A stretch of 64,000 bases of DNA from a phage. The number at the start of each line of letters is the position of its first letter. Position 1 is the first letter of the stretch. The translations under genes were made by a program, and so were the position numbers. The stretch is taken from assembly GCA_025611195.1 (NCBI GenBank), contig GCA_025611195.1_4718.1; one strand, written 5' to 3'. Below the pieces are notes generated by a model. It did not search any database. It had not been told where the DNA came from and saw nothing but the letters and a program-made list of their open reading frames with translations. Of this stretch, positions 15,029 to 60,918 are shown piece after piece.

Positions 15029-15056
15029 TGTCACCTAGGTAATGTAAGCGTCAAAT
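15029..15056 (-). promoter_or_regulatory. diverged copy B of the promoter-like motif (TACATTAC variant)
   Basis: Minus strand reads ...GACGCTTACATTACCTAGGTGACAG; shares the ATTACCTAGGTGA core; upstream of gene 13445-14881. Confidence 0.35.
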
Positions 15057-15089
15057 TTTTTCTATTTATAACGATAAACGGCATAGAAA

Positions 15090-15119
15090 CCTCCCCCAAC
15101 CCTTACGGGCTGAGGGAGG
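15090..15119. terminator. GC-rich hairpin downstream of the capsid gene
   Basis: cctccc-cc-aa-ccc-ttac-ggg-ctga-gggagg; flanked by CATA (15082-15085) and TATG (15126-15129). Confidence 0.55.
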
Positions 15120-15218
15120 CTGACTTATGTATCACGGTGCCGGATGAATGTCCGGTGCAATGAAACCATCCGCAACGTTGTCGTCAAGAATATCATCCAA
15201 CGAAGCAGCTACGGTAGT

Positions 15219-17441
15219 TCAGTTAGTCTGAACCGGCAGCTTGATGTTTTCAGTGTAGACCTTACGCAGGTTCACAACGTTAATCAGACCCAGCAGCGGG
15301 CAGTTGTTAACGAAGCGGCAGCGAGGCTGAACCATGGTTTCTTTAGAAACCTGACCGTTACGGGTAACCTGAGCAACAGATACCAGTTCCGGTACATACA
15401 GGAACATACCGAAGGTCAGCGGATCCGGAGAACCCTGGATACCACGAGACAGGGTCACGAAGATCTTATCACGCAGCAGGACGTTCGGGTTATCTACAAC
15501 CACGAAGTTGAAGCTTACACCAACGGTACGGAAATCACCATCGGTCTGCAGGAACTGCGGGATGTAGTTGTCGGTTGCTACTACGCAACGCGGTTTCTCA
15601 TCAGCGTTGGAAGACAGCAGCTGCAGAGCTGGCTGATAACCAGACTCGGAGTACATGCGATATGCCATCTCACGAATCACGTTCATGATCGCAGCGGACA
15701 CTTCGGCACGACGTTCTGCAGTGGTGGTACCCTGAACAGATTTCGCCAGGTCCAGATTGATTTCTTCGAACCACGGACGGATCAGGTAACGACCGAAACC
15801 TTCGATCTGGATATCACCGAACTGACGGAAGCGAGAGGTCGCAACCGCTTTCAGTGCATCTTTGTAGCTGAACAGTTTCTCAACCATCAGGTTGTCGAAA
15901 CGTGCGTTAGCAGCTTGGATCAGAACGTCCAGGTCAGCAGCGTTTTCTTCCCAATCCAGCGGACGAGGAATAGAGAACGGAGCCAGCAGGCCGATTGCGT
16001 AACGTTCTTGCTTCATGTTGAAGTCAAGGTGTTTACCACGTTCACGACGGTTGCTGTTGTTACGGCGAATACGCAGTTCGTAACCAACCAGTTTGAAGCT
16101 CAGGTCGTCAGCCAGGTCTTTAAATTCTTGGCTCTTACGCGGCTGTTCGATGTTGTCCTGATCAACCAGGCGATACAGTTCAGCGTTAGCACCGTTAACA
16201 CGCAGACCTGCTTTCTCTACGTTGGAAGAACCGTAAACTTCGATAGCCAGCTGAGCAGCAGATTTCGCATCGATGATGTCCTGCAGCGCTTCAGCTTTCG
16301 CGCCTTTAACGTCAACGGTGTTCTCATCAACGAAGATGGAGTGGGTGTCGAACGCCAGGGTCATTTTGCGGAAGTCGCCTTCCAGGGATTTCTGGAAACC
16401 GTTGGTAATCAGACCGGATACGTCGAACGGAACGTAAGAGGTCTTGCTGTGCTTGGCTGATTTGATTTCCACCAGGATTTTGGTCAGCGTGATCTGAGCA
16501 TCCAGCGCGTCGGTGTTGTCGCTGTAACCGTTAGCCAGAATGCTATCGTCTTCAGCGATACCGATCATGTCGATCAGTTTATCAACAGCCAGGTAAGACG
16601 TTTTGTAAGTTACGCCTTTGATCTCGATGTCGCGCGGAGCAACGATAGTTTTGTCAACGAAGTACTGCGCGTTAGCATCGTCAGCACGATAGATCGGATG
16701 CAGATCGGTCACGTCGTTGGACAGAACGTCGTTGTACATGAACGCATCCAGCAGCGGACGACGTACCCAATCAGCCGGAGTACCGTCAGCGTTACGACGC
16801 AGGTGGTTGAACACCAGCGGACGACGGAAAGATACATCATAACCGATCTGGTTCGGAGCCAGAACGATGGTGTTGTACAGTTCGTTACCCATGCGGCTCA
16901 GACGAGAAGCCTTCACGTTGAACACAACGGAGTACGGCATCATGTCACGCAGTTCTTTCTGGTCGTAGGACAGCTGAACCAGTTCTTCAGATTCGCAACC
17001 GCAGGAATCAGCAGCCATCATGACGAAGTTAGAGCTGTCAACTTCACGGCCAGACGGAGTGGTGCTGATGTTCATGGAACGTGCTTGTTTAGCATATTCC
17101 ACCGGGTTGCCATGAGCCAGCATGATCAGTGCTGCTGCACGAGCCTGCTGTGCGTTCATGGTGAACAGCTGTTCTTCAATACGCTGCTTCTCTTCCGGAG
17201 TGGTGGTTTCGAAGCCCAGCATGGACAGAACCGGTTCTTCTGCTTTACGGATGTCGCTGCTGAAGCTCTTAACATCCATATCGTTAACCAGTTTGTCCAT
17301 GGATTTGAAATCAACCTTAGAAGCAGATTCCATAGACAGGAAGGTGTTCTCCAGACCTTTGTCTGCTGGTTTGCTACCATTAGCGGTCAGGAACTGGCGA
17401 GTGGCCGCGACCTGTTGGCTAAGAAGGGTTTTATCATTCAT
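15219..17441 (-). CDS. putative major capsid protein (740 aa, phiKZ-like size class)
   Basis: AAAGGA SD before ATG 17441; codon usage strikingly different from neighbours (CTG, CGT, GGT, AAC, ACC, TTC dominate), consistent with very high expression. The antisense track ORFs 15144-16460 and 16698-17444 are by-products of that bias. Confidence 0.55.
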   Translation of the reverse strand: MNDKTLLSQQVAATRQFLTANGSKPADKGLENTFLSMESASKVDFKSMDKLVNDMDVKSFSSDIRKAEEPVLSMLGFETTTPEEKQRIEEQLFTMNAQQARAAALIMLAHGNPVEYAKQARSMNISTTPSGREVDSSNFVMMAADSCGCESEELVQLSYDQKELRDMMPYSVVFNVKASRLSRMGNELYNTIVLAPNQIGYDVSFRRPLVFNHLRRNADGTPADWVRRPLLDAFMYNDVLSNDVTDLHPIYRADDANAQYFVDKTIVAPRDIEIKGVTYKTSYLAVDKLIDMIGIAEDDSILANGYSDNTDALDAQITLTKILVEIKSAKHSKTSYVPFDVSGLITNGFQKSLEGDFRKMTLAFDTHSIFVDENTVDVKGAKAEALQDIIDAKSAAQLAIEVYGSSNVEKAGLRVNGANAELYRLVDQDNIEQPRKSQEFKDLADDLSFKLVGYELRIRRNNSNRRERGKHLDFNMKQERYAIGLLAPFSIPRPLDWEENAADLDVLIQAANARFDNLMVEKLFSYKDALKAVATSRFRQFGDIQIEGFGRYLIRPWFEEINLDLAKSVQGTTTAERRAEVSAAIMNVIREMAYRMYSESGYQPALQLLSSNADEKPRCVVATDNYIPQFLQTDGDFRTVGVSFNFVVVDNPNVLLRDKIFVTLSRGIQGSPDPLTFGMFLYVPELVSVAQVTRNGQVSKETMVQPRCRFVNNCPLLGLINVVNLRKVYTENIKLPVQTN

Positions 17442-17590
17442 TGAAAGTATCCTTTACAGAATTAACTTATATAAGTCGGTCGATAGACCATAGCGTACAC
17501 GCGTGCATGCGCCACTATAGTATCAGTAAACACTTACCGTTATTGAGGTTGTGATACAACACTAAAAATGCCGCATAACTTTTCCCTACG

Positions 17591-18211
17591 TCACAAACGA
17601 CGCAGGCGATAATGGATGGAACGATTGGTGCAATATGAACGGAACAGCGGCAATTGCGCAACTTCCGCAAGACTCATATTAATTCGCAGATGTTCAATAA
17701 CGGCGCTGTAGTTATCAGCAATACGATCGCTCAATAACTCTTCTGCCAATAAAGGAAGACAATCGACAACAATCGCGATCACATCCTCATTAACATAACG
17801 CACCCGAACACTCAACGGACGTTTGTCTGGGCTGTAAGTTGGATCCGCCAAACGACGTTCAATATCACGCGGATAGCTCGTCAGTAAATGGTAATAACCA
17901 TTGTCATAACGATTGATGTACTCACACAGCACATCAACATTCTTCTCCGACGGCAAACCTGTTTCGTCATAGTGATACGCAAACATACCACCAAGTAGGT
18001 TGTTAAGATGTACCGCAGGGTTCGCTTGTTCGTGTTCTTTCGTGATGAAGAAAGGCACGTTTTGGGCTGCGAAATAAAAACCTACATCATTGGGCGATAG
18101 TATGCCGAAAAGACTTTTAGGATCCAACAGCACCTGTAAGTCATCACGCGCATTTCGAATAATCGCGTGTTCTACCCAATTCGGAACGACGAGATATCGG
18201 AGTTCCTTCAT
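17591..18211 (-). CDS. hypothetical protein (206 aa)
   Basis: AGAGG SD before ATG 18211; divergent from the helicase gene. Confidence 0.7.
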   Translation of the reverse strand: MKELRYLVVPNWVEHAIIRNARDDLQVLLDPKSLFGILSPNDVGFYFAAQNVPFFITKEHEQANPAVHLNNLLGGMFAYHYDETGLPSEKNVDVLCEYINRYDNGYYHLLTSYPRDIERRLADPTYSPDKRPLSVRVRYVNEDVIAIVVDCLPLLAEELLSDRIADNYSAVIEHLRINMSLAEVAQLPLFRSYCTNRSIHYRLRRL

Positions 18212-18250
18212 TATGATTACCTCTTTGCAAGTATCGAAAGGATTGAGTCG

Positions 18251-19861: not shown

Positions 19862-19887
19862 ACGCAAAAAAAAAAGATTGTACGGTT

Positions 19888-19919
19888 CCCTCCTCCAACC
19901 CGTAAGGGAAGGAGGAGGG
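19888..19919. terminator. GC-rich hairpin between convergent genes
   Basis: ccctcctcc-aa-ccc-gtaa-ggg-aa-ggaggaggg; A10 run 19866-19875 upstream; TATG 19921-19924. Confidence 0.6.
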
Positions 19920-19934: not shown

Positions 19935-20261
19935 TTAACTTATCGTCATAAATTCGCTTGGTGAGAATTTCCAACCATTCTCATTGAGAAGTGTGTTGAG
20001 TTTCGCTGCGACGATAAGCCATGCATGCATAGCCGTTATGTCGTATTGGCGATTCACTCGACGTTGGTTTTCGATATTGATTTGCTCCTGTTCAGTGATG
20101 TTTGGATAGAGTGAGATAGCGCTGGGCTTACCCAACGCGCTAGTCATCACCGCAGTACATTCACTGATAATGTTGTTTAAGTGGTAGTTGTATACCGTTC
20201 CACGCATGACGCGATGACGGCATTCGATAATAGCGTCGTAAATGATTTCTCGAGTAATCAT
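19935..20261 (-). CDS. hypothetical small protein (108 aa)
   Basis: ORF between hairpin 19888-19919 and the next gene; weak SD. Confidence 0.55.
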   Translation of the reverse strand: MITREIIYDAIIECRHRVMRGTVYNYHLNNIISECTAVMTSALGKPSAISLYPNITEQEQINIENQRRVNRQYDITAMHAWLIVAAKLNTLLNENGWKFSPSEFMTIS

Positions 20262-20267
20262 GATAAC

Positions 20268-20669
20268 TTAAAACATACGTTCGTTTTTAGCACGTGCGGC
20301 CATTACCAGATCGTAGATACCCGCGGTTCGTAAACATTCGTCGTAGTAACGATGTGCGCCTTCCTCAGCCATCCATGATAACCCACGACTATCCGCAACA
20401 ATAACCAATTTGTTATTGTTGAATGCACACACAACACGGTAAGTCGCGTTGTTATTCGGATCGCGAGTGATCAGTTCATAGACACCGTTAACAGGTTTAC
20501 TGAATTCGCCATTTAACGGGACGAGTTCGGTAGTACCTTCAGCAAACGTTACGTTGATCGGAGAAGGATCTTTAGCGATAACAGTATATTCCACATTGTG
20601 TTCTTTACTGGTCATAATGCCGAAGTAAGAACTGATAGGAGAACGCGGTACACTAAGAATATTAAACAT
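20268..20669 (-). CDS. hypothetical small protein (133 aa)
   Basis: Track ORF extends to 20771; AGAGGA SD precedes in-frame ATG at 20669. Confidence 0.6.
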   Translation of the reverse strand: MFNILSVPRSPISSYFGIMTSKEHNVEYTVIAKDPSPINVTFAEGTTELVPLNGEFSKPVNGVYELITRDPNNNATYRVVCAFNNNKLVIVADSRGLSWMAEEGAHRYYDECLRTAGIYDLVMAARAKNERMF

Positions 20670-20739
20670 GAAAGTTGTCCTCTTAATTGGATATAAATTG
20701 TTGAGTTTGTGATTGGGAAATGAAAACGTTGTTTCGGTT

Positions 20740-21312
20740 TTAGACGATGAGTGACCAGGTGGTAAGCACACCGCTTGCGAATTCGAGCTTAAGACGTTTA
20801 CCGATAAGTTGTTGTTGAATCATCTTTTCAGTGATACGTCGATCTTGCTGAACCGCTTTATCAAACGCTTCTTTCGCTTCGGCTTGGTAGAAGTTCGTTT
20901 CTTCGTTGTCGTCGATCTCTTCGAGAGCGTCATCGTCGATGTCAGCAAGTTTCACTCGACCGTTTTCATCAGGTTGTTCTGCAGGCTCATTGTCATAAGG
21001 CGTGTCTTTTGTTGGTGCGACACGATGATGCAACTCGACCTGTGTTAACATGATCTCCATCTCACCATCGATAGGGATGATTTCATCGGCGCAGCCGTTT
21101 TCGGTCAGCTCTCGACTTTCCAGTAATGTCGTGGTGACAGAGAACACCTCTTCAACAGGAACCTCATCATCGTCGATAGTGTTAACCGTATTGCTGGTAA
21201 CTTCGGCAACGACCATCAAATCGAATGCGTGAGGATCACCTGGCATTTTGATTCCTGGAAGTTTGTTGAGGTACCAAGGATCGAGAATCATGATTTCTGG
21301 ATTAAACATCAT
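20740..21312 (-). CDS. hypothetical acidic protein (190 aa)
   Basis: GAAAGG SD before ATG 21312; Asp/Glu-rich. Confidence 0.65.
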   Translation of the reverse strand: MMFNPEIMILDPWYLNKLPGIKMPGDPHAFDLMVVAEVTSNTVNTIDDDEVPVEEVFSVTTTLLESRELTENGCADEIIPIDGEMEIMLTQVELHHRVAPTKDTPYDNEPAEQPDENGRVKLADIDDDALEEIDDNEETNFYQAEAKEAFDKAVQQDRRITEKMIQQQLIGKRLKLEFASGVLTTWSLIV

Positions 21313-21383
21313 TTTACCTTTCTATGTTAGGTGGATTGCGGATAGAAGAATCAATGCATAAACTAATTTAAGTTTGTTAAGGT

Positions 21384-22286
21384 TTACTTAGCCTTTGAGT
21401 TATGCGGACTAACATGCTGTTGTACTCGTTGGATTGTATCGTAGTACGGGTTAGATTGGTTGAACATGTTGTTGTGTGGGGGATAGCCATATGGCGCATT
21501 TTGCCTTGTTGGTGAGAAACCTTGTTGAGAAGGACGGTTTGAATTAACCGCGAGTACGTAGTAAACCAAATTTTGACGGTCGAATGTTCCTTCGTTTTTG
21601 AAAGTGTCGGCGTAGGCTTTTACCGCTGGAGTGAGCCTATCACCATCGGCTGTAATAATTGTACCGTCTGGGTAAACTTCCCGAACGACGCACCATGTTC
21701 CGATGAGAACATCTTTAGGTGCTGTATTACCATATCCGGTTGTAACGGTAAGGTAAGTATCGAACCCTTCAGAACAACAAGGATGACGATAGATGGGTCC
21801 TGTCATTTCCGTTCTATCGGTATCGCTACATTGTTCTATTGAGAGCGATGATGTGTCGGTTTTGAAATTGTCAAATTCTTTCTTTAAGTCGATTACGGGT
21901 TCTTTCGTATAGTACTTCTTGATTGCTTTGACGTAAAGATCAGGAACGGTTGTCAGCAATCCGTTATACCTGATTCTCAGGTTTTCGAGTAATCCAAAGA
22001 TGCTCGCGCATGCCTGTTCGCGAGGTTTTGTAAGATAAGAGATCCCCTCAGGAACGCTGGGATCTTTGAGAAAGAAGATTGCGTTATTGTCGTTGTGCGA
22101 TGCGTTGAAGAAAACGATTGATTCGATATATACGGAGCATAGGCTGTCATTGGCGTCGTCAGATAACACCCAGATGCACTCATCGGTCGTCTTGTTTAAA
22201 AGTTCTGTTTTGTCGACCAAACGTTGTTTCATTGCGAGGAAATGTGCCTGTTGTTCAGCAGTTAATTCACGATAAATAGTGGTCAT
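21384..22286 (-). CDS. hypothetical protein, Cys-containing paralog of 22372-23145
   Basis: AAGGAG SD before ATG 22286 (track start 22364). Shares (G/K)PIY(R/I)HP(C/E)C...YL(T/T)(V/I)T.G...REVYPDG(T/R)I with the upstream gene. Confidence 0.7.
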   Translation of the reverse strand: MTTIYRELTAEQQAHFLAMKQRLVDKTELLNKTTDECIWVLSDDANDSLCSVYIESIVFFNASHNDNNAIFFLKDPSVPEGISYLTKPREQACASIFGLLENLRIRYNGLLTTVPDLYVKAIKKYYTKEPVIDLKKEFDNFKTDTSSLSIEQCSDTDRTEMTGPIYRHPCCSEGFDTYLTVTTGYGNTAPKDVLIGTWCVVREVYPDGTIITADGDRLTPAVKAYADTFKNEGTFDRQNLVYYVLAVNSNRPSQQGFSPTRQNAPYGYPPHNNMFNQSNPYYDTIQRVQQHVSPHNSKAK

Positions 22287-22331
22287 GTTGGGCTCCTTGA
22301 TTACGATAAGGATGATTGCGGTTTTGTGGGT

Positions 22332-22364
22332 TTGGTAGGGCCCTAAACAAAGGAACCCTACCAA
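22332..22364. terminator. hairpin between the two Cys-containing paralogs
   Basis: ttggtaggg-(15-nt loop)-ccctaccaa, 9-bp stem. Confidence 0.4.
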
Positions 22365-22371
22365 TATTAGG

Positions 22372-23145
22372 TTAATCAGGATCGGCGTAGAAATGGTGAG
22401 GATAGCCGGAGTACGATCCTGCGTTACCGGCTATGGATTCTTTCTGGGAATCGACGACGAGCGCATAGAACTGTCGGGAATTTGTTAGCGTTGAGAAATA
22501 AGCGGAAAGGACTTTTTCATTCAATGCATCACAAGGTAGGCAGGTGCGACCGCAAAACGTCACGATACGGCCGTCAGGATAGATCTCACGAATCATTCTC
22601 CACTCACCGATATCCACTGGTGATGGCGCTGCTACACCACCTGTTATCGTTAAGTAACGATCGTACGTGGTATGGCATTCAGGATGAATATAGATCGGCT
22701 TGTTCGTTTCGACAGGTTCCGAAGTATCTCGACGACTAAGAAGCTCAACGACTTCAAGATAAATCGTTGGTAGATCGCGGAGAATACCGGTGCTACGACG
22801 TTTCTTTGTGATTCGCGGACGAATCTCGTTGAGAGCGTATTCGAGCTTACGTTCAGCTTCGTACGCATCGAGTTTTATCAAGCGACCCGGTTCATCGGAA
22901 TGATCCTGAGTTACGTAAACGAAATACGTGTCGCCTTTTGCAGCGTGAAAGATTCGAGCGACCTTAAATGTTTCTACGGTACGATAACCAAGGCGCGATT
23001 GATTTTCCACAGGAGAAAATATCCAATGCCGTCCTTCGTCAGCCTCAACAATTTCGTTGAAACTATCTGTCTGTTCTGGGACCTGGTAGTCAGCCAGTAA
23101 TGTGTCGAGAGCATCATCAGCCAGTTTGATGTAAATATCTGTCAT
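22372..23145 (-). CDS. hypothetical protein, Cys-containing paralog of 21384-22286
   Basis: GAGGA SD before ATG 23145; C-terminal KPIYIHPECHTTYDRYLTITGG...IREIYPDGRIVTFCGRTCLPC. Confidence 0.75.
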   Translation of the reverse strand: MTDIYIKLADDALDTLLADYQVPEQTDSFNEIVEADEGRHWIFSPVENQSRLGYRTVETFKVARIFHAAKGDTYFVYVTQDHSDEPGRLIKLDAYEAERKLEYALNEIRPRITKKRRSTGILRDLPTIYLEVVELLSRRDTSEPVETNKPIYIHPECHTTYDRYLTITGGVAAPSPVDIGEWRMIREIYPDGRIVTFCGRTCLPCDALNEKVLSAYFSTLTNSRQFYALVVDSQKESIAGNAGSYSGYPHHFYADPD

Positions 23146-23178: not shown

Positions 23179-23204
23179 GTGATAACAGTAAGCGTTGTTA
23201 TCAC
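23179..23204 (-). promoter_or_regulatory. hairpin overlapping the 3' end of motif copy A
   Basis: gtgataaca-gtaagcgt-tgttatcac, 9-bp stem. Confidence 0.4.
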
Positions 23205-23230
23205 CTAGGTAATATAGTCGCGAAATAAAC
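23199..23230 (-). promoter_or_regulatory. conserved promoter-like motif, copy A (contains TATATTAC on minus strand)
   Basis: Minus strand reads AGTTTATTTCGCGACTATATTACCTAGGTGATAA; about 65 nt upstream of ATG 23145. Confidence 0.5.
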
Positions 23231-23259
23231 TGGAGTAATGCGCTTAAGACAGCATAAAC

Positions 23260-23291
23260 CCCTCTCCCAACCCGTCAGGGAAGGGAGAGGG
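23260..23291. terminator. GC-rich hairpin (CCCTCTCCC family)
   Basis: ccctctccc-aa-ccc-gtca-ggg-aa-gggagaggg; immediately after the stop of 23296-24663. Confidence 0.6.
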
Positions 23292-23295
23292 AATA

Positions 23296-28136: not shown

Positions 28137-28512
28137 CGATGTCATCCTCGCTAATTTCACCATATCCTTGTTGTCGATATCCGGTATAATGAATCAGACT
28201 GCTCTGTAGAAGCTCTTTAACGAGCCCTAGACGCGTTTTATCTGCTTCATTGGACGTTTCCATTAATGTTTCTATTTCGTTGTTTAAAACAGCGTATAGC
28301 GCTTCTAACGGCAATCCTTGGATGATTGGTTTGCTGGTGCCTTCTGGCAATGCCGCAACAGGAATCTGCACGACGGTTTCATGCGCAGTATGCGGGTTAA
28401 TACGACAAATATACATACCTGGTACTGAATGTCGCGGGCACGCCGCTACCAAGCATGTCTGTTGTTGCGCACCGTTAAGTGCGAGTGGTAGAAATTTTGC
28501 TTCACGTCTCAT
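28129..28512 (-). CDS. hypothetical small protein (127 aa)
   Basis: ATG 28512 lies about 47 nt downstream of hairpin 28564-28585 and a TATG. Confidence 0.65.
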   Translation of the reverse strand: MRREAKFLPLALNGAQQQTCLVAACPRHSVPGMYICRINPHTAHETVVQIPVAALPEGTSKPIIQGLPLEALYAVLNNEIETLMETSNEADKTRLGLVKELLQSSLIHYTGYRQQGYGEISEDDIDA

Positions 28513-42466: not shown

Positions 42467-45460
42467 ATGAGCGTAACCAACAAAGATCTTGCTGAACAGC
42501 TCAATCGCTATATGCTTTCACCTATTGAGATGCAGGCTGTTGCAAGCGATATGATCCGTTTGGCTTCTGATGGTGAATTAACCCTGGTTGACCCCAGCTG
42601 TCCGTTTGTTTATCTGCTGGAGGTTGCAACGGCGACGGCTGCGAACCAGAACGCACGGGATGAGTCCCGTGTTCGCGAACTGTATCCAAAACTTGCAACG
42701 AACTGGAATCAGCTCTATCGTTGGATGTATGATGAGTCGTACGTCGGACGTTTCGCAATGCCGGGTAAAACGGAAATCATTTATTCGTTAGGGTATCAGG
42801 AAATCCTCGATCGCGCTGTAGAAATTCCAAACACCGCTTCCTCCGATGATTTAAGCCGTTCTTACAGCCGTAAGTTAGTGATACCACGTACGACGGCGTT
42901 TACGGTAGCCGGAATGGATTTCGGGTTGCATTATCCCATCGAAATCCAAGTGCAGGCGCACGACCAGATACGCGTTGTTTATAACACGGATAACATCAGC
43001 CCGTTGCAAACCTTGGAGAGTAACCAAGTTGAGTATGGGGTTGTTCGTGTAAAAGCGGGCAAAGTGTTGGTGATGCGTATCCCGCTGTTCCAGTTTAAAA
43101 CGCTGGTAAAAGATGTGCCGTTTAACAGCGTTCACGGGATGAACAGCAGCATTACCTTCGAAGATCAGTTTTACCATTGTCGTGCGTACATGTCGTCGGA
43201 TAACGATACCTGGACGGAGATAGCGACAACCCACAGTCAACAGATCTACGATCCGTTAACACCGACCATCGCGTTACAAGTAGAAGGGAACAAACTTAAC
43301 TGGCGTGTTCCTGAAATTTATTTGTCTCAAGGTACGATGGATAAAAGCACCATTCGACTTGAGGTGTTGACGACGAAAGGGAAAATCAGCGTCGACCCGT
43401 CTGATTACGACGTGACCGATTGGAAAGATAACTACATCGATTTGTCACCAAAAGCCGAACAGAAATACAGTGCGCCGCTAAGTGCGTTCAACATTAAAGG
43501 GATTTATAGTGAAGGGGCGTTGTCGGGCGGACGATCCGCATTAACGTTCGAGGAGCAACGTGAACGCGTTATGGCAGGCGTGAACAAAACCAAGGTACCG
43601 ATCACGGGAACACAGGTAGAGCTGGTGCTTCAAGATGCGGGTTATGGGATGGTAACCACTATCGACAACGTAACAAATCGTTCGTTCCTGGCAACCCGAG
43701 ATTTACCGCAATTGAGCGACAGCGTGCCGCAGGCCGGTTCGTTGATGGGGTCTTTCTATACGTCAGCCGCAGCATTGGTGAAAAGTAAGTTTGTCGCCGA
43801 TAACGGCGATCGTATCACGATTAAACCTGACTGCCTGTATCGTGACAGTAACGGAAGTATCGCGCTGTTGTCAGACGATGAAATTGATCGTATTAATGCA
43901 GGCGACTCCGATGCGAAGTTGAACGCAGTAAACAACGCCATGTTGTTTTACAGCCCGTTTCATTACGTGTTGGATGCGACAAGCGATTTCGACATTCATG
44001 CTTATTACCTGGATGCTCCTAAGATCGGCACACAAGCATTCCTCGACGCGAACGAGACAATCCCGTTAACCGCTATGGTGACCGGATACCGTCTGGACCG
44101 TATCGCTGAAGGATATCGTCTAAGCCTCATCGTCGAAGGTAACGACGCATGGAAAGCGCTCGACGATAAAAACGTGCATGTGCAACTGGGATTCAATCCG
44201 CGGGGTGAGGGTGATTACGCAACGATGTTAGCATCGCCTACAACCGATGATGAAGGTCGTCGTTTGTTCACCTTCGATATCACCACGAATTATGATTTTA
44301 CACGAATCCTGGCTGATGATTCCACAGCGTATGAACCGTATATCGCACTGACGTCCTTCTCGATGTATGAATCCACACCACGCGATTACTGGGCGTCATT
44401 ACAACAGTACCTGGAAATCTTCCATGTGGTGACGGATTACGCGCCGGAAGATGTCGACGGTATTTTACACAGCGCTTCCGATAATTACCTGGTTAAGAAA
44501 CTTACGCTTCAAAATGGGTATTGTTTCTACCGTGAACGTCTCACCGCAACCTTTGGTTATGATCTGGATGGTCTTTGGATGCGCTCTCGTACGGTAGCCT
44601 CGGAGATTACGTATAAACGTTACACCGAGAACATTCCGTGGGTGTATGAAGAAGATATTCCAGCGACGGATGAGACCGGTTCGGTTATCATTGAGCAAGG
44701 TGAAGACGGTACGTTGTCGGTTAAATACCTGCATCGTAAAGGTGACCCGAAATTAAACAGTGATGGAAGCCAAGCCTATCGTTATCTGAAAGGCGACATC
44801 ATGAAAGATAATTACGGTAATCCGATTCCTGTCGATGAACGTGAAGTTCTGCGTAACCTGGACATGTTCTTTATCGATGCGTCGTATCTGCTAGCGAACG
44901 ATACTGACGTGATTGACTATCGTAATGCGATTCCTACGCAGCTTATCGAGTGGATCAAGAACGATATCATCACGTTCAGGAATTTCTGTTATGAGGAAAC
45001 GGAAATTTCACTGTATCCTAAACAATCGTTGGGGTATGTGGACGTTATTGTGGAGAACGGATTGGAAACGACGCTTCCTGCTGCCCTATCGTTTAACGTA
45101 ACGCTGTACTTACCGGCTAAGCAATACGCGGATTTGGATCTACGTCAAGTCCTTCAAGCGATGGTATCGAAAGTCATCAATAAATGCTTAACATCCCGTA
45201 CAGTGGCTAAAGCAGAAATGATCGCGATGATTCGTGAGGAAGGTGGCGACGACATCCTTAACGTTGAAATCGATGATTTTGGACCAGGTAAGAACCTCAG
45301 TGTTTATACCGCGAAGAACGACGGTGTTCGTTGTGCGGTGAAGAAAGAGCTTTATGTGAAAGCGGATGGTATCTTGTCCGTACGTGAAGCGATCGATGTA
45401 AGTTTTGTGAAACATGCACAAAGCAACAGTTCGGCATTAGCGCAAGGCCTTCGTGTCTAA
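42467..45460 (+). CDS. hypothetical large protein (997 aa), possibly structural
   Basis: Starts 4 nt after the previous stop; ends before hairpin 45482-45513. Confidence 0.8.
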   Translation: MSVTNKDLAEQLNRYMLSPIEMQAVASDMIRLASDGELTLVDPSCPFVYLLEVATATAANQNARDESRVRELYPKLATNWNQLYRWMYDESYVGRFAMPGKTEIIYSLGYQEILDRAVEIPNTASSDDLSRSYSRKLVIPRTTAFTVAGMDFGLHYPIEIQVQAHDQIRVVYNTDNISPLQTLESNQVEYGVVRVKAGKVLVMRIPLFQFKTLVKDVPFNSVHGMNSSITFEDQFYHCRAYMSSDNDTWTEIATTHSQQIYDPLTPTIALQVEGNKLNWRVPEIYLSQGTMDKSTIRLEVLTTKGKISVDPSDYDVTDWKDNYIDLSPKAEQKYSAPLSAFNIKGIYSEGALSGGRSALTFEEQRERVMAGVNKTKVPITGTQVELVLQDAGYGMVTTIDNVTNRSFLATRDLPQLSDSVPQAGSLMGSFYTSAAALVKSKFVADNGDRITIKPDCLYRDSNGSIALLSDDEIDRINAGDSDAKLNAVNNAMLFYSPFHYVLDATSDFDIHAYYLDAPKIGTQAFLDANETIPLTAMVTGYRLDRIAEGYRLSLIVEGNDAWKALDDKNVHVQLGFNPRGEGDYATMLASPTTDDEGRRLFTFDITTNYDFTRILADDSTAYEPYIALTSFSMYESTPRDYWASLQQYLEIFHVVTDYAPEDVDGILHSASDNYLVKKLTLQNGYCFYRERLTATFGYDLDGLWMRSRTVASEITYKRYTENIPWVYEEDIPATDETGSVIIEQGEDGTLSVKYLHRKGDPKLNSDGSQAYRYLKGDIMKDNYGNPIPVDEREVLRNLDMFFIDASYLLANDTDVIDYRNAIPTQLIEWIKNDIITFRNFCYEETEISLYPKQSLGYVDVIVENGLETTLPAALSFNVTLYLPAKQYADLDLRQVLQAMVSKVINKCLTSRTVAKAEMIAMIREEGGDDILNVEIDDFGPGKNLSVYTAKNDGVRCAVKKELYVKADGILSVREAIDVSFVKHAQSNSSALAQGLRV

Positions 45461-48374: not shown

Positions 48375-51179
48375 TTAAGCTAATTTACCGAAACCGGCTT
48401 TCTGTAGTTTCTCGTTGATGATTTTCGCTTCAGCGAAGACGTAATCGCGGTAGGCGGTCACTAACGCATCCACACGTGAACGCAAGGCTTCTTCGAAGCT
48501 ATACCACGCTGCGATTTCACGAATCTGTGCGTTGATATAATCAACGGTTGAGCGAAGCTCGGTTGCGTTTTCTTGCGGGATGGCTTTCACCTGGCGAGCA
48601 ACGTCATTTAAACGACGGAACTGTGTTTCGATTTCTTTAAACTTACTGTCGGCAAGTTTGCTGAATTCGTCACCGGAACGGGTAAATAACAGATAGCTGT
48701 TGCCGTCAAGTGCGGTCGCTAACTGCTGAAGTACGTTGGTGTCCGGATACACAGGAGTACCGCTTTGCAATACTTTCTCACCGAATTCCGCGAAGTCCTT
48801 CGGCGGTAAGTGTGCAGACGTTGTCAACTCGTTGAAACGGAAAGTCAGCGAATTATCATAAAGCATCCGGTACGCTTCCATACCCTGTTTCATGGTACCA
48901 GCCAGGTTAGCCAGACGCGGAGCAATCTCACCTTCTTTAGCGCGTTTCTGATCTTCTAACGCCCCTTCGAGTTCTTTACACTGGTCATTCAGATACACGA
49001 TACGATCGGGACGCAGACGACGCATCTCACGAAGAATAGTATCCAGCTTACCTTCCTGGAAATAACCTAACGTTAAAGACGTACACGCTTGCTGAAGACG
49101 ATCGAACACCGGTAAGGTCACCATCTCTTTACGGATACCATCAACAATCGCAGAAACAGCCGAAAGTTTCTGTTCGGTGGTTAATGGAGCGTCAGAGACC
49201 GACTTGCTGGGCGCGCCAACAACGTTACGCATTGCGTCGGTATCCTCGGTTTTATCAACCTCTTTACGAACGTTCTCATCAGGAACATAAACGTTCGCGT
49301 TACGTTTCGCCTGCTTGATGGCGTCGTTGGCTGCTTTTTCGGTGGCCGCTACACTATCGGCACGTTTCTTCAAGAGTTCAATAATCCAGAGCAACAGACG
49401 ACGAATCGCTGTATAGGCTGTCGTGATGATGACACCGATAACAGCCATCTTCATGATACCGAACGATTCCATGGTCGGCTCTAACGCCCGGTCTGGCATA
49501 TACCGTTCACGCAGTTCCAGATAGATCTGCTCATCTGGTTTGCTGATCTCACCACGATGCGAAGTCCGATAGATGGCTTCGTCAATCTCAACAAGATCTT
49601 TACGTGCTTGACGGTCTGTTTCGGTCAAATAAGCGCAGCCGGATACGTCGTCTTCAAAACTTTCGAACTTAAAGAAATCGACAACCATCTTGGCAAGCGC
49701 CTCTTTCTTAGCAGGATCGAGCGTCTTCGCATCCTCTTTTTGCTTATCCATTTTTTCCTTGAATTTCTCTTTATAGTCATTCAAGGGTTTTACCGCTCTT
49801 GCCTTCAACGCGTTATAGATAGCTTTCCACTCATCGTCACGTTCGAGGACAATGAAATGGTTCTTGAGTTCGAAAGCACGATAGCGTGCAACGAGCTGTT
49901 CTACCTGAATGTGAGCGAGTTGGATATCCATTAACCAACGCGACATCGCCGAGATCAAACGGCTATAAGCGAACAACGTTTGGTAGGTTAACTTCATGTA
50001 TGTTTCATACAGCTCAATATCGCCGCTCTGAATATTGGCTGTTGGATTCATTTCCTTTGTTGCCCTGAAGACCTGTTCTGCTTCTCTCAGCGTCTTTTCG
50101 AACTTAACGTCATTAAACGCAGTGAATGGTTCAGCCAACTCATGCATTTTATCGTGGAGTTCGCGGATCCAAGATTCCTTGCTGTCGCGGATGGTGTTTT
50201 CATCATGGAGCGCAGTCTGATGTTTTCGTACCCATTCTTCCACGATATCAGCAGCTGCAACCACCTGGACACGATCTGAAATCAATGGGACAATCGCGTG
50301 AAGTGCCCCAACACATTCTGGCGTGTCCCAGTGTTTCTGGAGGTCACCACGGAAACGGTCGATGTCTTTTAAGGTGGTACCTAAGTCAAGGAAAGTGCCG
50401 CCATTATGACTCATTTGTGCGACAAGATCGGCAAATACCTTTTGTTTTTCGATGACAAAAGGAACCATCCGCATAAGCCATTCAGCAGTTGCTTTAGCCT
50501 TTTCTTTCAGATTTTTGTCGGCGATTTCTTTAAGGTTAATCGCGCTACTGTATCCTGCAAGTTCGTTGTAGACGTCGTTAACCGTCATCTCTTTATCCAA
50601 CATTTCTTTGAAACGTGGATAATCTGCACCTAACGCGTCGATGACTTCTTGGATGATGTCGTCTGTGGTGGCGATAAATTTATTTGTGCCACCGTAATGT
50701 TTCCAGATTTTCTGTAGCATCTTCTTAAAGAATTCGAAGACGAATGTCCAGATACGCTTGATGAGTTCCCAGACTTTCTTCGCGCCATCGACAAACAGTT
50801 TAGAGACCTTGGCAACGAATCCTTCCTGTACCAACTCAACGCCGTTACGTGATGGGATTTCCGTGAAGAAAGCATCTGGCAGTTGTTTCGGGAACGCATC
50901 GCCAAGACGCATACGTAGTTCAGGTACATCGGCACGAGAGATACCGCGTGTTACTAACTGTTCGTGAAGACGAACATTTTCTTCACCAGAGGCTACGAAT
51001 TCGTTAACGTCAAATGAAACCAGTTCTTGATCTTCGGTGGTGACGACGCTTGAACCATCACTGGTTTGGATGTCTTCGTCAGGGAACGCCATCAGCATAC
51101 CGTGACGCATTTCAACCACTCCGTAATCGGTTGCTAAACCGAATTCGTTGTGATCGGGAGTAATAACTGGGATACTCAT
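48375..51179 (-). CDS. large inner-body-like family member (934 aa) with one hydrophobic helix
   Basis: ATG 51179 overlaps upstream stop; motif VELVQEGFVAKVSKLFVDGAKKVWELIKRIW; hydrophobic segment MAVIGVIITTAYTAI. Confidence 0.75.
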   Translation of the reverse strand: MSIPVITPDHNEFGLATDYGVVEMRHGMLMAFPDEDIQTSDGSSVVTTEDQELVSFDVNEFVASGEENVRLHEQLVTRGISRADVPELRMRLGDAFPKQLPDAFFTEIPSRNGVELVQEGFVAKVSKLFVDGAKKVWELIKRIWTFVFEFFKKMLQKIWKHYGGTNKFIATTDDIIQEVIDALGADYPRFKEMLDKEMTVNDVYNELAGYSSAINLKEIADKNLKEKAKATAEWLMRMVPFVIEKQKVFADLVAQMSHNGGTFLDLGTTLKDIDRFRGDLQKHWDTPECVGALHAIVPLISDRVQVVAAADIVEEWVRKHQTALHDENTIRDSKESWIRELHDKMHELAEPFTAFNDVKFEKTLREAEQVFRATKEMNPTANIQSGDIELYETYMKLTYQTLFAYSRLISAMSRWLMDIQLAHIQVEQLVARYRAFELKNHFIVLERDDEWKAIYNALKARAVKPLNDYKEKFKEKMDKQKEDAKTLDPAKKEALAKMVVDFFKFESFEDDVSGCAYLTETDRQARKDLVEIDEAIYRTSHRGEISKPDEQIYLELRERYMPDRALEPTMESFGIMKMAVIGVIITTAYTAIRRLLLWIIELLKKRADSVAATEKAANDAIKQAKRNANVYVPDENVRKEVDKTEDTDAMRNVVGAPSKSVSDAPLTTEQKLSAVSAIVDGIRKEMVTLPVFDRLQQACTSLTLGYFQEGKLDTILREMRRLRPDRIVYLNDQCKELEGALEDQKRAKEGEIAPRLANLAGTMKQGMEAYRMLYDNSLTFRFNELTTSAHLPPKDFAEFGEKVLQSGTPVYPDTNVLQQLATALDGNSYLLFTRSGDEFSKLADSKFKEIETQFRRLNDVARQVKAIPQENATELRSTVDYINAQIREIAAWYSFEEALRSRVDALVTAYRDYVFAEAKIINEKLQKAGFGKLA

Positions 51180-56492: not shown

Positions 56493-56522
56493 CCCTTCCC
56501 CGGCCTGATGGCTAGGGAAGGG
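56493..56522. terminator. GC-rich hairpin inside the small-paralog operon
   Basis: cccttccc-cggcc-tgat-ggcta-gggaaggg; TATG 56525-56528. Confidence 0.5.
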
Positions 56523-56536
56523 GCTATGCTACGTTG

Positions 56537-56935: not shown

Positions 56936-56971
56936 CTTTTTAATCCCTAGTTTGTTATTGATCACGTATAT

Positions 56972-57367
56972 TTACTCTTTGACGTCAGTTGTCGTTTCGA
57001 CATGCTTCTCACTACTGACGTACCAGAGCAGGTACGCTGGGAAAAGATTGACCTCTAAGCTAAATGGGATATTGTATTTCTCTTCCATTTTACAGAGATG
57101 TTCTTTAATTAAATTTCTCGCGTCTCTGTCACCACGAACAGAGTGCCAGTCTAGTTCTTTGTTCTCCTTTACCAGGACCTCTACGATGATACGTTGCTCG
57201 TGAACCTCGGTTTTCACAGTGAAAAGTAAATCGCTGCTATCAAAACGGGTAAAACGAATGTATGAACCAGGTGTTTTTTCTTGTTTAATAATATCGATCA
57301 TGGTAGAAATGCGCGGATGATCGATGTTGTCGTTAACAGCTTTAACGATGGATTCTACAATGCTCAT
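56972..57367 (-). CDS. small paralog family member 5 (131 aa)
   Basis: IVKAVNDNIDHPRISTMIDIIKQE and EEKYNIPFSLEVN mirror member 4. Confidence 0.7.
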   Translation of the reverse strand: MSIVESIVKAVNDNIDHPRISTMIDIIKQEKTPGSYIRFTRFDSSDLLFTVKTEVHEQRIIVEVLVKENKELDWHSVRGDRDARNLIKEHLCKMEEKYNIPFSLEVNLFPAYLLWYVSSEKHVETTTDVKE

Positions 57368-57399
57368 TTTTTATCCTTAATGTTATCGATTTGGAAATA

Positions 57400-58167: not shown

Positions 58168-58169
58168 GA

Positions 58170-58628
58170 TTACCCCTTAGTTTCTTCTTCGTCTGGAGAG
58201 TACTCCATTGTGTAGAATTCATAACCATCGGAAAACTTGAGTGTTAATGTAATAGGGAAATCGCACGGCATAGCTGATTTCGTAAACGCGTTATTAGCAA
58301 CATCAGCCAACCGACGTATAGCATCAGTCCCGCTGACGCTGAACGGTAGTTGTATGTTGATAAGGATGCGGTGCTTGTAAACATGGAAAACAACGGTACT
58401 GTCAAGATAAACGCTATGGAACGGTATTGTTGGGATGCGTTCCACGATGGTAAAATACGTCCCGTCATTATCGCTATGTCCCATCGACCAAATATCGGAT
58501 TTGCGTAGATTTTGTTTGAGGGATTCGATACTTCGAGTGACGGTATCAACAACAGGCGTGACGTAAGTGTCTTTATGCGAGTCGAAAAGTTCGTTGACGT
58601 TAGATTCGAATGAATACATTGTTGCCAT
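58170..58628 (-). CDS. small paralog family member 7 (152 aa)
   Basis: QLPFSVSGTDAIRRLADVANNAF...CDFPITLTLKFSDGYEFYTMEYSPDEE; start ATG overlaps upstream stop (TAATG). Confidence 0.75.
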   Translation of the reverse strand: MATMYSFESNVNELFDSHKDTYVTPVVDTVTRSIESLKQNLRKSDIWSMGHSDNDGTYFTIVERIPTIPFHSVYLDSTVVFHVYKHRILINIQLPFSVSGTDAIRRLADVANNAFTKSAMPCDFPITLTLKFSDGYEFYTMEYSPDEEETKG

Positions 58629-59089
58629 TATTCTACCTCTTTCTTCATCTTCATCGGAACAGAGAGTGCTGTTATCTCTGTTCCATTATCCGGTTCATAC
58701 TCCAATGTAACGAGATTGCAGCCATCCGATAATTCATAATCGATCGCTAGGGGGAACGAGACACCGTGCGACTTTATGCATTTACCAAATGTCTCGTTGG
58801 CTGTATACATTAGAAGTTGCTTTGCGGCAAGCCCGTTTACGCTGAAAGGTAATCGTGCTGTCGCAGCGATACGATTATTGTAAACTCTGATATCGGTGAT
58901 ATCTACAATCGTAGCATTGCCGTGTTGTGTCGTTGGAACGGATAGGCTGTAGAAGTAAGGTTCGGAGTCGGAATCGGGCTCGTTAAATAATTCCCAGCAC
59001 CCGTCCTCCTGCAATCTTACTTCGAGTATTTCAAAGCTTTTAATTATCGATTCTACCAGCTGCTCACCGTAAGAATCCCATGTCGTCAT
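58628..59089 (-). CDS. small paralog family member 8 (about 153 aa)
   Basis: Track start GTG 59107; AAGGTG SD then ATG 59089. RLPFSVNGLAAKQLL...VSFPLAIDYELSDGCNLVTLEYEPDNG. Confidence 0.7.
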   Translation of the reverse strand: MTTWDSYGEQLVESIIKSFEILEVRLQEDGCWELFNEPDSDSEPYFYSLSVPTTQHGNATIVDITDIRVYNNRIAATARLPFSVNGLAAKQLLMYTANETFGKCIKSHGVSFPLAIDYELSDGCNLVTLEYEPDNGTEITALSVPMKMKKEVE

Positions 59090-59159
59090 TTTTAACACCT
59101 TCGACACCTTTTAACCGATGCGTGCCCCACCTAACAAGGGACACGATATCGTTGATTAA

Positions 59160-59654
59160 TTACTCTTCTGTGTTTTCATTGTCAGGATCGTAATGGAATT
59201 CGAACAGCCCTGAACCGTCATGTCCGTTGATTGTTAGTATAACGGGCATATCGAATCCTCGGACGCGCGAATGAAAACACTGTGCTAATTTTAGTTTGGC
59301 GTATGCCGCTATTTCATTGACGGCAATACACGACTCACCTGTTATACTCAGTATAACGTCGATACTAACAACGTTGTCGTGCAACGCAAAACGCCAGCGA
59401 TCGATACGATTATTATCTTTAGCAGCTGTCTCGTTTACGAGATAGACTTTATCGTCAACTGACAAAGCAGGGCTCCAGCAACGTTCGTTTATTAAATTCG
59501 CCTGGAGTTTTAGTATCGTCTGATCAATAATATCCCAACACGCAACCAGTGTGGTGTCGGGCACTGAACAGAGAAGGGCGAGCACTTTATCCTTTATTTT
59601 AAGTGCTTCCACAGAGCGTCCGCAAATACCATGCATTTCAACCTTCTTATTCAT
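59160..59654 (-). CDS. small paralog family member 9 (about 164 aa)
   Basis: Track start GTG 59660; AGAGGTG SD then ATG 59654. ...FDMPVILTINGHDGSGLFEFHYDPDNE. Confidence 0.7.
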   Translation of the reverse strand: MNKKVEMHGICGRSVEALKIKDKVLALLCSVPDTTLVACWDIIDQTILKLQANLINERCWSPALSVDDKVYLVNETAAKDNNRIDRWRFALHDNVVSIDVILSITGESCIAVNEIAAYAKLKLAQCFHSRVRGFDMPVILTINGHDGSGLFEFHYDPDNENTEE

Positions 59655-59697
59655 ATTCACCTCTTTCTTAATCTAAATGTTAGTTGGGGTGGGATGC

Positions 59698-60300
59698 TTA
59701 CATGCTTTCTAGCATATTGACGATCATGGAACCCATACCGAAACTCGGTCTCTCGCCAATGTACTCAGCAAGCTGACGATGAACGTCTTTTGGATTCCCT
59801 TCTTCACCGTCGGCGTCGATGTAAACCGAAAAAGAAAATGAATCGCAATCCACGCTGATAACCAGACGACGCTCATTGCGTTCCTTGAGTGTGTCGACAA
59901 TAGCTGCTTTCAGTACTGCGATCGCGTTCATCGCGTGCAAGATATCTCCATCGGGTTTCGGCAGATCGATCTTTTCTTTCAGGTCGATATTGATGTTGGT
60001 TACAATTGGATTGAGGTCGACCTTGACATAATCGTTAGGGTACATGCGAATAATCGCACGATCGATATCTGAACCGTAAAAGTCAACACGCGGCTTTAAC
60101 ACTTCTTTGTTTGGATCCATGTTTTCATCCATACCCGCCTGTAGAAAGCGTTCTACGTTATCCAGTTCACGATAGATTGACGCTTCGATTTCTTTCAGAT
60201 AGTTGGCTGCGGTTTCATGTTCTTTACGCAGCTCGTCTTTAAGGAGCTGTACGGTGGTTTCACTGGAACGAATGCTGTTTGCGAACTGGGTAATTGACAT
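59698..60300 (-). CDS. hypothetical small protein (200 aa)
   Basis: Track ORF extends to 60390 across terminator 60357-60377; AAGGAA SD then ATG 60300. Confidence 0.65.
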   Translation of the reverse strand: MSITQFANSIRSSETTVQLLKDELRKEHETAANYLKEIEASIYRELDNVERFLQAGMDENMDPNKEVLKPRVDFYGSDIDRAIIRMYPNDYVKVDLNPIVTNINIDLKEKIDLPKPDGDILHAMNAIAVLKAAIVDTLKERNERRLVISVDCDSFSFSVYIDADGEEGNPKDVHRQLAEYIGERPSFGMGSMIVNMLESM

Positions 60301-60349
60301 ATCGAATTCCTTAAATTCTCTTGAGTTCAATTGATGATGAAAAGCTGTT

Positions 60350-60377
60350 AAAAAAATGGTGGGGTTCTCCCCCACCA
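60350..60377 (-). terminator. canonical intrinsic terminator (minus strand): hairpin plus U7
   Basis: Minus-strand RNA would read GGUGGGG-gagaa-CCCCACC followed by UUUUUUU (plus 60350-60356). Confidence 0.65.
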
Positions 60378-60400
60378 AAACGTCAGACACACGCAGAAAA

Positions 60401-60823
60401 TCAATTCAGTGATGCATACAACGCATAACGACTGTAGATTTCAACCGCTGGTCCATTATGCGTTAACAGACCATCTCGGTTGTAGTATTGGAAAAATGAA
60501 TAACGTTTGTCGAAGTGATAAACGAAAGCAATGTCTTTGCCAAGACCTGTGATGTGCGGTCTGTTTTTATCTAGCAATGCTTTGACTTTTAACAGTGTTG
60601 CCGCACGCGCTTTAACATTAGGGATTAATCCATCACAGTCGATATAAATCGTGTAACCTGTTTCTGATGCTGCGACAGTTGTATTGCGATTGACGCGAAA
60701 GATTTTTGTTTTGTATGTATCATCTTCAAGGATTGGGTTTTGTTTTTCGTATTTTCGTTTACGCAGAAATTCTACAACGGTAATATAGTTAGCGGTAATA
60801 TGTCCGGTTATAGCTTGTAACAT
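60401..60823 (-). CDS. hypothetical small protein (140 aa)
   Basis: ATG 60823 is about 65-95 nt downstream of conserved promoter-like motif 60889-60918; followed by a canonical terminator. Confidence 0.65.
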   Translation of the reverse strand: MLQAITGHITANYITVVEFLRKRKYEKQNPILEDDTYKTKIFRVNRNTTVAASETGYTIYIDCDGLIPNVKARAATLLKVKALLDKNRPHITGLGKDIAFVYHFDKRYSFFQYYNRDGLLTHNGPAVEIYSRYALYASLN

Positions 60824-60867
60824 CTTGACATCCTCTTATATTGGATTGATTACAGTTATCTTAAATA

Positions 60868-60895
60868 GGTGATAAGATATCTTGCTCTTATCACC
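60868..60895 (-). promoter_or_regulatory. hairpin overlapping the 3' end of motif copy C
   Basis: ggtgataaga-tatcttgc-tcttatcacc, 10-bp stem; stem differs from copy A by paired substitutions. Confidence 0.4.
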
Positions 60896-60918
60896 TTAGT
60901 AATATAGTCGTGAAATAG
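60889..60918 (-). promoter_or_regulatory. conserved promoter-like motif, copy C (contains TATATTAC on minus strand)
   Basis: Minus strand reads AGTCTATTTCACGACTATATTACTAAGGTGATAA, about 29 of 33 positions identical to copy A; upstream of ATG 60823. Confidence 0.5.

Follow-up and report, generated by a model that had tools for sequence, protein, structure and literature searches.

What are the three short, closely similar blocks of DNA that stand before minus-strand genes in phage contig GCA_025611195.1_4718.1 (GenBank assembly GCA_025611195.1), and which RNA polymerase would read them? The contig was analyzed over a stretch of 64,000 nucleotides (nt), called the window throughout. A sequence-only reading of the window had noticed the three copies and noted that early promoters of phage phiKZ carry a conserved AT-rich element recognized by the virion RNA polymerase; it proposed on this ground that the genes at 22372–23145, 60401–60823, and 13445–14881 are early genes. 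Our analysis indicates that the three blocks are very probably early promoters of the phiKZ type (Chimalliviridae), read by the virion RNA polymerase.

Three Related Blocks in the Window

The window has ~94–97% identity to vB_EcoM_Goslar (NC_048170), a jumbo phage of Escherichia coli that forms a nucleus and belongs to the Chimalliviridae, and to two IMG/VR contigs, and it is identical to none of them; position 1 of the window is at about position 28,220 of Goslar. Judged by nucleotide identity, it is a distinct genome of a Goslar-like Chimalliviridae jumbo phage, with 95–97% identity to its nearest relatives.

The three blocks are ~40 nt in length and all lie on the minus strand, where the sequence-only reading had placed them, with cores at 23209–23216 (site A), 60899–60906 (site B), and 15039–15046 (site C). 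All three are intergenic and co-oriented with the downstream gene. Copies A (23199–23232, AGTTTATTTCGCGACTATATTACCTAGGTGATAA) and B (60889–60922, AGTCTATTTCACGACTATATTACTAAGGTGATAA) are identical at 30 of 34 positions, in line with the ~29 of 33 counted before, and both have the core TATATTAC; in copy C, which retains TACATTACCTAGGTGA at 15031–15046, the core is TACATTAC. In full, the blocks read TTACTCCAGTTTATTTCGCGAC-TATATTAC-CTAGGTGATA at site A (23199–23238), TTAACGCAGTCTATTTCACGAC-TATATTAC-TAAGGTGATA at site B (60889–60928), and TAAATAGAAAAAATTTGACGCT-TACATTAC-CTAGGTGACA at site C (15029–15068). Copy C had been called a diverged copy that keeps TACATTACCTAGGTGA; the retained element is indeed there, but the copy is better described as an A-tract flavor of the block, closest to the chimallin and RNA polymerase promoters of phiKZ. 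The core is separated from the ATG (counted from its last C) by 64, 76, and 158 nt across the three sites, and the foot of the terminator hairpin that precedes each block is 41–45 nt from TAYATTAC and ~20 nt from the start of the conserved block, values with which the distances given earlier roughly agree.

The bare 8-mer TATATTAC is not significant, with three matches in 64 kilobases (kb) vs. 1.5 expected. The third exact match (60780–60787, minus strand) sits within the open reading frame (ORF) of 140 amino acids (aa) downstream of site B, has no flanking elements, and scores <6 bits, and is therefore taken to be a chance match.

Both strands of the window were scanned with a 40-column matrix built from 13 Goslar copies of the block, and 20 Markov-shuffled genomes served as the null. 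Sites A, C, and B score 47.4, 44.6, and 40.8 bits, respectively, vs. a null maximum of 13.7 bits. No further match of ≥6 bits was found with this matrix on either strand of the window, so that the three copies first noticed are all that the window holds. None of them is antisense or intragenic; the equal frequency inside genes in antisense orientation that the sequence-only reading had named as grounds for refutation is not seen.

The Block Is a Family in Goslar

The whole genome of Goslar has 13 strong copies and 1 weak copy of the block, and every one is on the strand that does most of the coding, the minus strand. These copies are co-oriented with the downstream gene and intergenic, 25–160 nt before the start codon, save for slight overlaps with 3′ ends (gp183 and gp213) and for gp047. 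The consensus of the Goslar copies is TTTCACGRC-TAYATTAC-YTNNGTGA, with an upstream A-tract (ATTGAAAAAAATTTCAGGGT...) in a subset. Among them are a site upstream of the chimallin gene, gp246, the next gene to which is the RNA polymerase subunit gene gp247, and a weaker copy upstream of another RNA polymerase subunit gene, gp165.

Two features of the Goslar annotation touch these sites. Gene gp047 (annotated at 49584–49772, 62 aa) overlaps a conserved predicted promoter and its 5′ stem-loop, and the ORF that begins at the conserved ATG has 24 codons; gp047 is probably a wrong coding-sequence call. At 14972–15825, ~850 base pairs (bp) without an annotated gene, an unusually long interval, lie upstream of a predicted early promoter at 15050–15089. 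In a loose motif scan of viral contigs, chance matches were mixed with many contigs of 200–320 kb among the matches listed, and the scan serves as illustration only.

The Block Has the Register of phiKZ Early Promoters

The copies in the window, in Goslar, and in phiKZ share one layout in the same register, TTTNA-N4-TAYATTAC-N5-TGA, with TTTNA exactly 9 nt before the core at 3 of 3 window sites, in 11 of the 13 strong Goslar copies, and at 20 phiKZ sites. The phiKZ set was drawn by motif from the phiKZ genome sequence itself, in which TTTNANNNN followed by TATATTAC is found at 20 places on the plus (gene) strand and nowhere on the minus strand, preceding gp5, gp6, gp36, gp54 (chimallin), gp68, gp76, gp121, and others. 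Early promoters of phiKZ and their reading by the virion RNA polymerase were reportedly described by Ceyssens et al. in 2014, and the description was refined later (PMC8244752, PMC10914365). The literature gives 28–32 such promoters, which are read by the virion RNA polymerase and have an AT-rich element centered near −10 and a T-rich stretch upstream of −19 (PMC8244752, PMC7598289, PMC10914365); the chimallin early promoter is named P54E (PMC4666361). What the sequence-only reading had said of phiKZ thus matches both the phiKZ sequence and the published description.

A matrix derived from these 20 phiKZ sites alone was run over 128,000 window positions, with 50 shuffled windows as the null. 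It ranks the three window sites first to third (B, 7.2 bits; A, 1.4 bits; C, −2.7 bits), with the next match at −9.2 bits and null maxima that average −4.5 bits and reach 3.4 bits at the top. Run over Goslar, the same matrix gives its highest score, 24.5 bits, to the chimallin promoter. The low absolute scores in the window reflect the far greater AT content of phiKZ, and it is the agreement in rank that is informative here.

In keeping with phiKZ early promoters, the sites of Goslar-like phages have the core TATATTAC with TTTNA nine bases upstream and N5-TGA downstream, an A-tract flavor at the chimallin and RNA polymerase operons, a syntenic site after the capsid gene, and a one-strand, intergenic placement that is often directly after a CCYCCC...GGGRGG-TTATG terminator. 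They depart from phiKZ in several respects: the phages infect E. coli and have a higher G+C content (47% in the window); C can occupy the third position of the core (TACATTAC); the proximal spacer, CACGGC or CGCGAC, is rich in G+C, where phiKZ has AAACAG or AGATC; and only ~14 copies were found per Goslar genome vs. the 28–32 promoters reported in phiKZ. In addition, predicted 5′-terminal stems, described below, are enriched in Goslar and not in phiKZ.

Promoters of the N4-type virion RNA polymerase are marked by a conserved short DNA hairpin, with a 5–7-bp stem and a 3-nt loop, upstream of the start. The present sites are not of that type (see PMC4496689 for N4-type promoters); the conserved block has no inverted repeat, and the repeats that do occur follow the predicted start and are confined to sites A and B. 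A closer likeness is seen with AR9, a Bacillus jumbo phage with an injected multisubunit RNA polymerase, the early consensus of which is AAATATATATTAT-6N-G(+1), also written TATATTAT-6N-G (PMC5312081); here, too, an AT-rich core, TATATTAY, is followed by six bases and a G start. AR9 differs in being a non-chimallivirus with uracil in its DNA, in a core that ends in T, and in having no TTTNA or A-tract register. The early promoters of 201phi2-1, compared by description, likewise have an AT-rich motif ~10 bp upstream of the start, conserved −10, −20, and −30 regions, and small hypothetical genes downstream, although only six have been mapped (PMC11512511).

One variant of the block is conserved more widely than the rest. 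The A-tract distal element of the phiKZ gp54, gp68, and gp121 promoters is common to Goslar chimallin, gp200, gp214, and gp040 and to site C of the window, and with the phiKZ class II matrix the A-tract sites in Goslar and window site C are above the 99th percentile of the null. This flavor (ATTGAAAAAAATTT...) stands at Goslar 172961–173000, 226678–226717, 201927–201966, and 43249–43288, at window 15029–15068, and at phiKZ 45568, 57984, and 120657, among others. The idea that a second phiKZ distal element, TTCAAAC, is common to all non-A-tract Goslar promoters was rejected; two to three Goslar copies fit it, and window sites A and B do not. The A-tract flavor alone is therefore firmly conserved across genera.

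Site C Precedes a Non-Virion RNA Polymerase Operon

The gene content behind site C bears directly on the predicted timing. Unit C (8674–14881, minus strand), which is predicted to be early, comprises by homology and ORFs a 478-aa protein, a beta-N RNA polymerase subunit (11609–13405), an 852-aa protein, and a 92-aa protein. The product of 11609–13405 is homologous to phiKZ gp123 (E = 1e-56) and matches phrog_2943 (E = 7e-120), and by this homology the gene encodes the beta-N subunit of the non-virion RNA polymerase; phiKZ gp123 is a subunit of that polymerase and an early gene product (PMC4666361). The 478-aa protein has no detectable similarity to phiKZ gp122.

Site C has the terminator that follows the major capsid gene on one side and this four-gene operon on the other. 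This locus was compared in phiKZ plus four more genera, represented by PhiPA3, PhiEaH1, SPLA5c, and RSF1. In phiKZ, TATATTAC with an A-tract is found at the matching place, between the capsid gene gp120 and gp121–gp123. In PhiPA3 and Erwinia PhiEaH1, the same locus has, in order, a terminator, an A-rich tract, TATATTAC, N5, and TGA, and variant cores are found at the equivalent place in Salmonella SPLA5c (GATATTAT) and Ralstonia RSF1 (TATATCAT). The synteny of site C in phiKZ, PhiPA3, and PhiEaH1 points to an old promoter that has been kept in place. The 151-nt leader of unit C (14882–15032, minus strand) is almost invariant in seven Goslar-like genomes, with little variation and one compensatory pair only. 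Unit C ends in a G+C-rich hairpin followed by nine T (8600–8657, minus strand; −40.1 kcal/mol).

The window also encodes a subunit of the polymerase proposed to read these sites. The gene at 62279–63580 (minus strand) is a homologue of phiKZ gp80 (E = 1e-50) and the orthologue of Goslar gp78, which is one of five virion RNA polymerase subunits detected in Goslar virions by mass spectrometry (bioRxiv 10.64898/2026.04.21.720040). Both phage RNA polymerases are therefore represented in the window by one subunit each, the non-virion enzyme by beta-N of the phiKZ gp123 family (11609–13405) and the virion enzyme by a member of the phiKZ gp80 family (62279–63580). The gp123 homologue behind site C and the encoded virion RNA polymerase subunit both speak for early promoters of the phiKZ type. 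With the register, the matrix ranks, and the site C operon all in its favor, the proposal that 22372–23145, 60401–60823, and 13445–14881 would be expressed from early promoters gains support.

Terminators, Leaders, and Predicted 5′ Stem-Loops

All three blocks are preceded on the minus strand by a hairpin that matches the terminator motif of phiKZ, BCCYCCCCHWWDGGGRRGGBYTTATKYYGT, which is reported for 61 phiKZ terminators (PMC10914365). The hairpin upstream of promoter A is at 23259–23292 (CCCTCTCCCTTCCCTGACGGGTTGGGAGAGGG then GTTTATGCTGT), that upstream of promoter B is at 60952–60989 with the tail TTTTATGCTGT, and that upstream of promoter C, at 15088–15121, follows the major capsid gene and also reads as a plus-strand terminator. 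Besides these three boundary hairpins, the motif is matched at no fewer than four other places on the minus strand of the window. Sites that fit CCYCCC...GGGRGG followed by TTATGYYGT lie near 15082, 23253, 28559, 34492, 37197, 60945, and 61448 on the minus strand and near 15129, 55030, and 61492 on the plus strand; the 15082/15129 and 61448/61492 terminators look bidirectional. The terminator tail carries TATG, which is the late start motif of phiKZ.

Start sites were placed by analogy with AR9 (6N-G) and with the description of the phiKZ element as centered on −10. The predicted starts are G 23202 (±2) for promoter A, G 60892 for promoter B, and G 15032 for promoter C, each 7 nt past the core, and the predicted leaders of 57, 69, and 151 nt, respectively, end in a GAGGA or GGAGG Shine–Dalgarno sequence. 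The corresponding predicted starts in Goslar are at 49718, 86691, and 43252.

Two of these predicted transcripts would open with a stem-loop. In transcript A (23181–23202, minus strand), GAUAACA pairs with UGUUAUC across an 8-nt loop (−6.7 kcal/mol, z = −4.36; equaled by 0 of 200 shuffles), and in transcript B (60871–60892, minus strand), GAUAAGA pairs with UCUUAUC across a loop of the same length (−7.6 kcal/mol, z = −3.19; 2 of 200 shuffles). Both stems are of 7 bp and begin at the first base, and the sole C/G difference between them is compensated on the opposite arm; among relatives, stem A is kept while the loop varies. In Goslar, 6 of 14 predicted transcripts have a 5′-terminal stem, as compared with 11% of control positions (P = 0.003), with a peak at offsets −1 and 0 relative to the predicted start. 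No such stem is found at site C, and in phiKZ the count is 3 of 20, equal to the control, and the proposal that 5′-terminal stems are a general trait of chimalliviruses was accordingly rejected. We hold with moderate confidence that the stem-loops are a lineage-specific, secondary feature. No Rfam family matched anywhere in the window.

The leaders of E. coli ompA and of T7 phi10 begin with 5′-terminal stem-loops that stabilize the mRNA. Predicted transcripts A and B resemble them in having a hairpin from the first base and no single-stranded 5′ tail; they differ in that their start sites are predicted. Protection against 5′-end-dependent decay is the likely role of the stem-loops.

Sites A and B Precede Small Genes and a Variable Cargo

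The genes behind the other two sites have no assigned function. Unit A (19935–23145, minus strand), predicted to be early, has five ORFs (257, 326, 190, ~133–167, and 108 aa), the products of which gave no Pfam, PHROG, NCBIfam, or PDB match, and ends in a G+C-rich hairpin followed by 10 T (19867–19919, minus strand; −30.8 kcal/mol). Unit B is the single 140-aa gene at 60401–60823 (minus strand), the orthologue of Goslar gp075, and its product was likewise without a match in Pfam, PHROGs, NCBIfam, and PDB sequence searches. An intrinsic terminator, GGTGGGGGAGAACCCCACC followed by seven T, comes right after this gene (60350–60376, minus strand), and Goslar has an annotated terminator at the orthologous place; with its terminator directly behind the gene, unit B is a promoter–gene–terminator cassette.

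The first two genes of unit A (257 and 326 aa; 21384–23145) are absent from Goslar. In Goslar and in IMG/VR contig 3300011560, only a 24-codon remnant follows the ATG that opens the site A gene of the window, and other relatives have cargoes of 271+286+291, 260+295, or 134+254+277 aa behind promoter A. Homologues of the 257-aa protein, with 47–95% identity, are present on contigs of ~240 kb in E. coli, Salmonella, and Shigella assemblies. The promoter A block is kept in seven Goslar-like genomes, and in four relative loci both the terminator–promoter A module and promoter C are kept; the module persists where the cargo protein is only 48–67% identical. The flanks of site A differ among relatives on both sides of the module. 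In two relatives (L143, GCA_961210045.1, and L144), homology ends ~6 nt past the predicted start, which would mark the downstream edge of the promoter. These comparisons suggest that the terminator–promoter A module may be a junction for the exchange of early cargo, and on gene content the locus 21384–23145 is a variable site for predicted early cargo. Some Goslar-like genomes have an extra 236-aa gene before the module.

A search for related loci with the RNA polymerase subunit of the window returned three near-identical genomes only. Assemblies of Salmonella, Shigella, and E. coli isolates (GCA_009290805.1, GCA_021016215.1, and GCA_961210045.1) contain contigs that are Goslar-like genomes of ~236–244 kb, which implies that the group is wider than one named phage.

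Weighing the Promoter Reading

Several observations weigh against early promoters of the phiKZ type. In absolute terms, the three sites have low scores with the phiKZ matrix (7.2 to −2.7 bits), and site B is the sole one to surpass every null maximum. The start sites are predictions transferred from AR9 and phiKZ, and the inverted repeats that follow A and B reach 2–4 bp upstream of the predicted start in the window; the true start may therefore be a few bases earlier, or the repeat may act as DNA. The genes that follow A and B are without an assigned function, and gene content therefore offers no cross-check on an early role at these two sites. Finally, the searchable literature yielded no mapped 5′ ends of transcripts, no time course, and no data with rifampicin or chloramphenicol for Goslar-like phages.

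The blocks could instead belong to the non-virion RNA polymerase as middle or late promoters, or be of dual class, in which case the genes behind them would not be strictly early. There is precedent in phiKZ gp54, which has early and middle starts (PMC8244752), and in the continuously expressed AR9 genes that have early and late promoters (PMC7598289), and the terminator tail 35–40 nt upstream of the block contains TATG. We nonetheless consider this highly improbable. The published middle (TACT and A-rich, approximately −22) and late (TATG at the start) motifs of phiKZ are unlike the conserved block (PMC8244752, PMC7598289), which is in register with the early class, and the non-virion polymerase did not use an early P54E template in vitro (PMC4666361).

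That the block is mainly a DNA-level element, either an operator or a recombination “socket,” with the palindrome GGTGATAA...TTATCACC as a dimer site, would fit the reach of the inverted repeats past the predicted start and the breaks in homology on both sides of the terminator–promoter A module, but this is highly improbable. Neither site C nor many of the Goslar copies have the palindrome; its sequence varies between copies while pairing is kept, and the Goslar orthologue of B lacks its upstream extension. Conservation falls on the asymmetric block that precedes the start and that phiKZ promoters have as well, and a role as a socket would come on top of promoter function, not in its place.

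Least probable of all are host sigma-70 promoters, for even though TATATT is a good −10 hexamer, site B has a weak 9/12 match (TTAACG, 16 nt, TATATT), and several Goslar copies have TTAAYNC at a −35-like distance, there is no match at A and C (two of three sites fail), the core of site C and of three Goslar copies has TACATT, a poorer −10, the strongest conservation falls at positions that sigma-70 does not read (ATTAC, N5-TGA, and TTTNA in fixed register), and the same phiKZ motif works with the host RNA polymerase blocked (PMC4666361, PMC7598289).

Transcription from early promoters of the phiKZ type would proceed as follows. A multisubunit RNA polymerase packed in the virion would be injected with the DNA and would bind a bipartite element consisting of TTTNA and/or an A-tract ~20–33 nt upstream of the start and of TAYATTAC at about −14 to −7. 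The first transcribed base would be the G of the conserved TGA, which is 7 nt past the core; transcription would need neither the host RNA polymerase nor new protein synthesis, and the terminator directly upstream would insulate each promoter from same-strand transcripts of structural genes. The units so expressed would be the five small genes of A, the one 140-aa gene of B, and the operon of C, with the subunit of the non-virion RNA polymerase that would take over later transcription. On transcripts A and B, a stem-loop without a free 5′ tail would slow 5′-end-dependent decay. What the sequences show directly is the family of blocks, with its strand and placement, its exact register with phiKZ, its synteny, and the genes behind it; the polymerase that reads it, the precise start, the timing, and the stem-loop role are inferred.

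Implications for Goslar-Like Phages

The type of signal described here is already known from phiKZ, and the result, which is sound rather than surprising, leaves the understanding of phage transcription as it was. Its value is in its reach. The early-promoter and terminator codes of phiKZ hold across genera that have only ~25–30% protein identity. Among jumbo phages that form a nucleus, Goslar serves as the E. coli model, but no Goslar promoter map was found in the literature; the consensus TTTNA-N4-TAYATTAC-N5-TGA, with or without an A-tract, and the ~14 Goslar and 3 window sites that carry it provide a testable list of early units. A phiKZ consensus early promoter has already driven a selectable gene in phiKZ (PMC12676376), and the shared code is practical for engineering in the E. 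coli model chimallivirus as well as for annotation. The small genes of no assigned function behind A and B are candidates for roles in host takeover or antidefense.

Beyond this, we put forward a tentative and rather doubtful extension. The terminator and early promoter (~120 bp) may form a fixed socket for swapped accessory early genes, and the promoters may be of two old flavors, an A-tract flavor at core genes (chimallin and the RNA polymerase beta-N operon), maintained from Pseudomonas to E. coli phages, and a non-A-tract flavor before small accessory genes, the transcripts of which, in the Goslar lineage, would open with a protective 5′-terminal stem-loop. If this is true, promoter flavor and leader structure would set separate core and accessory early programs within the early infection vesicle.

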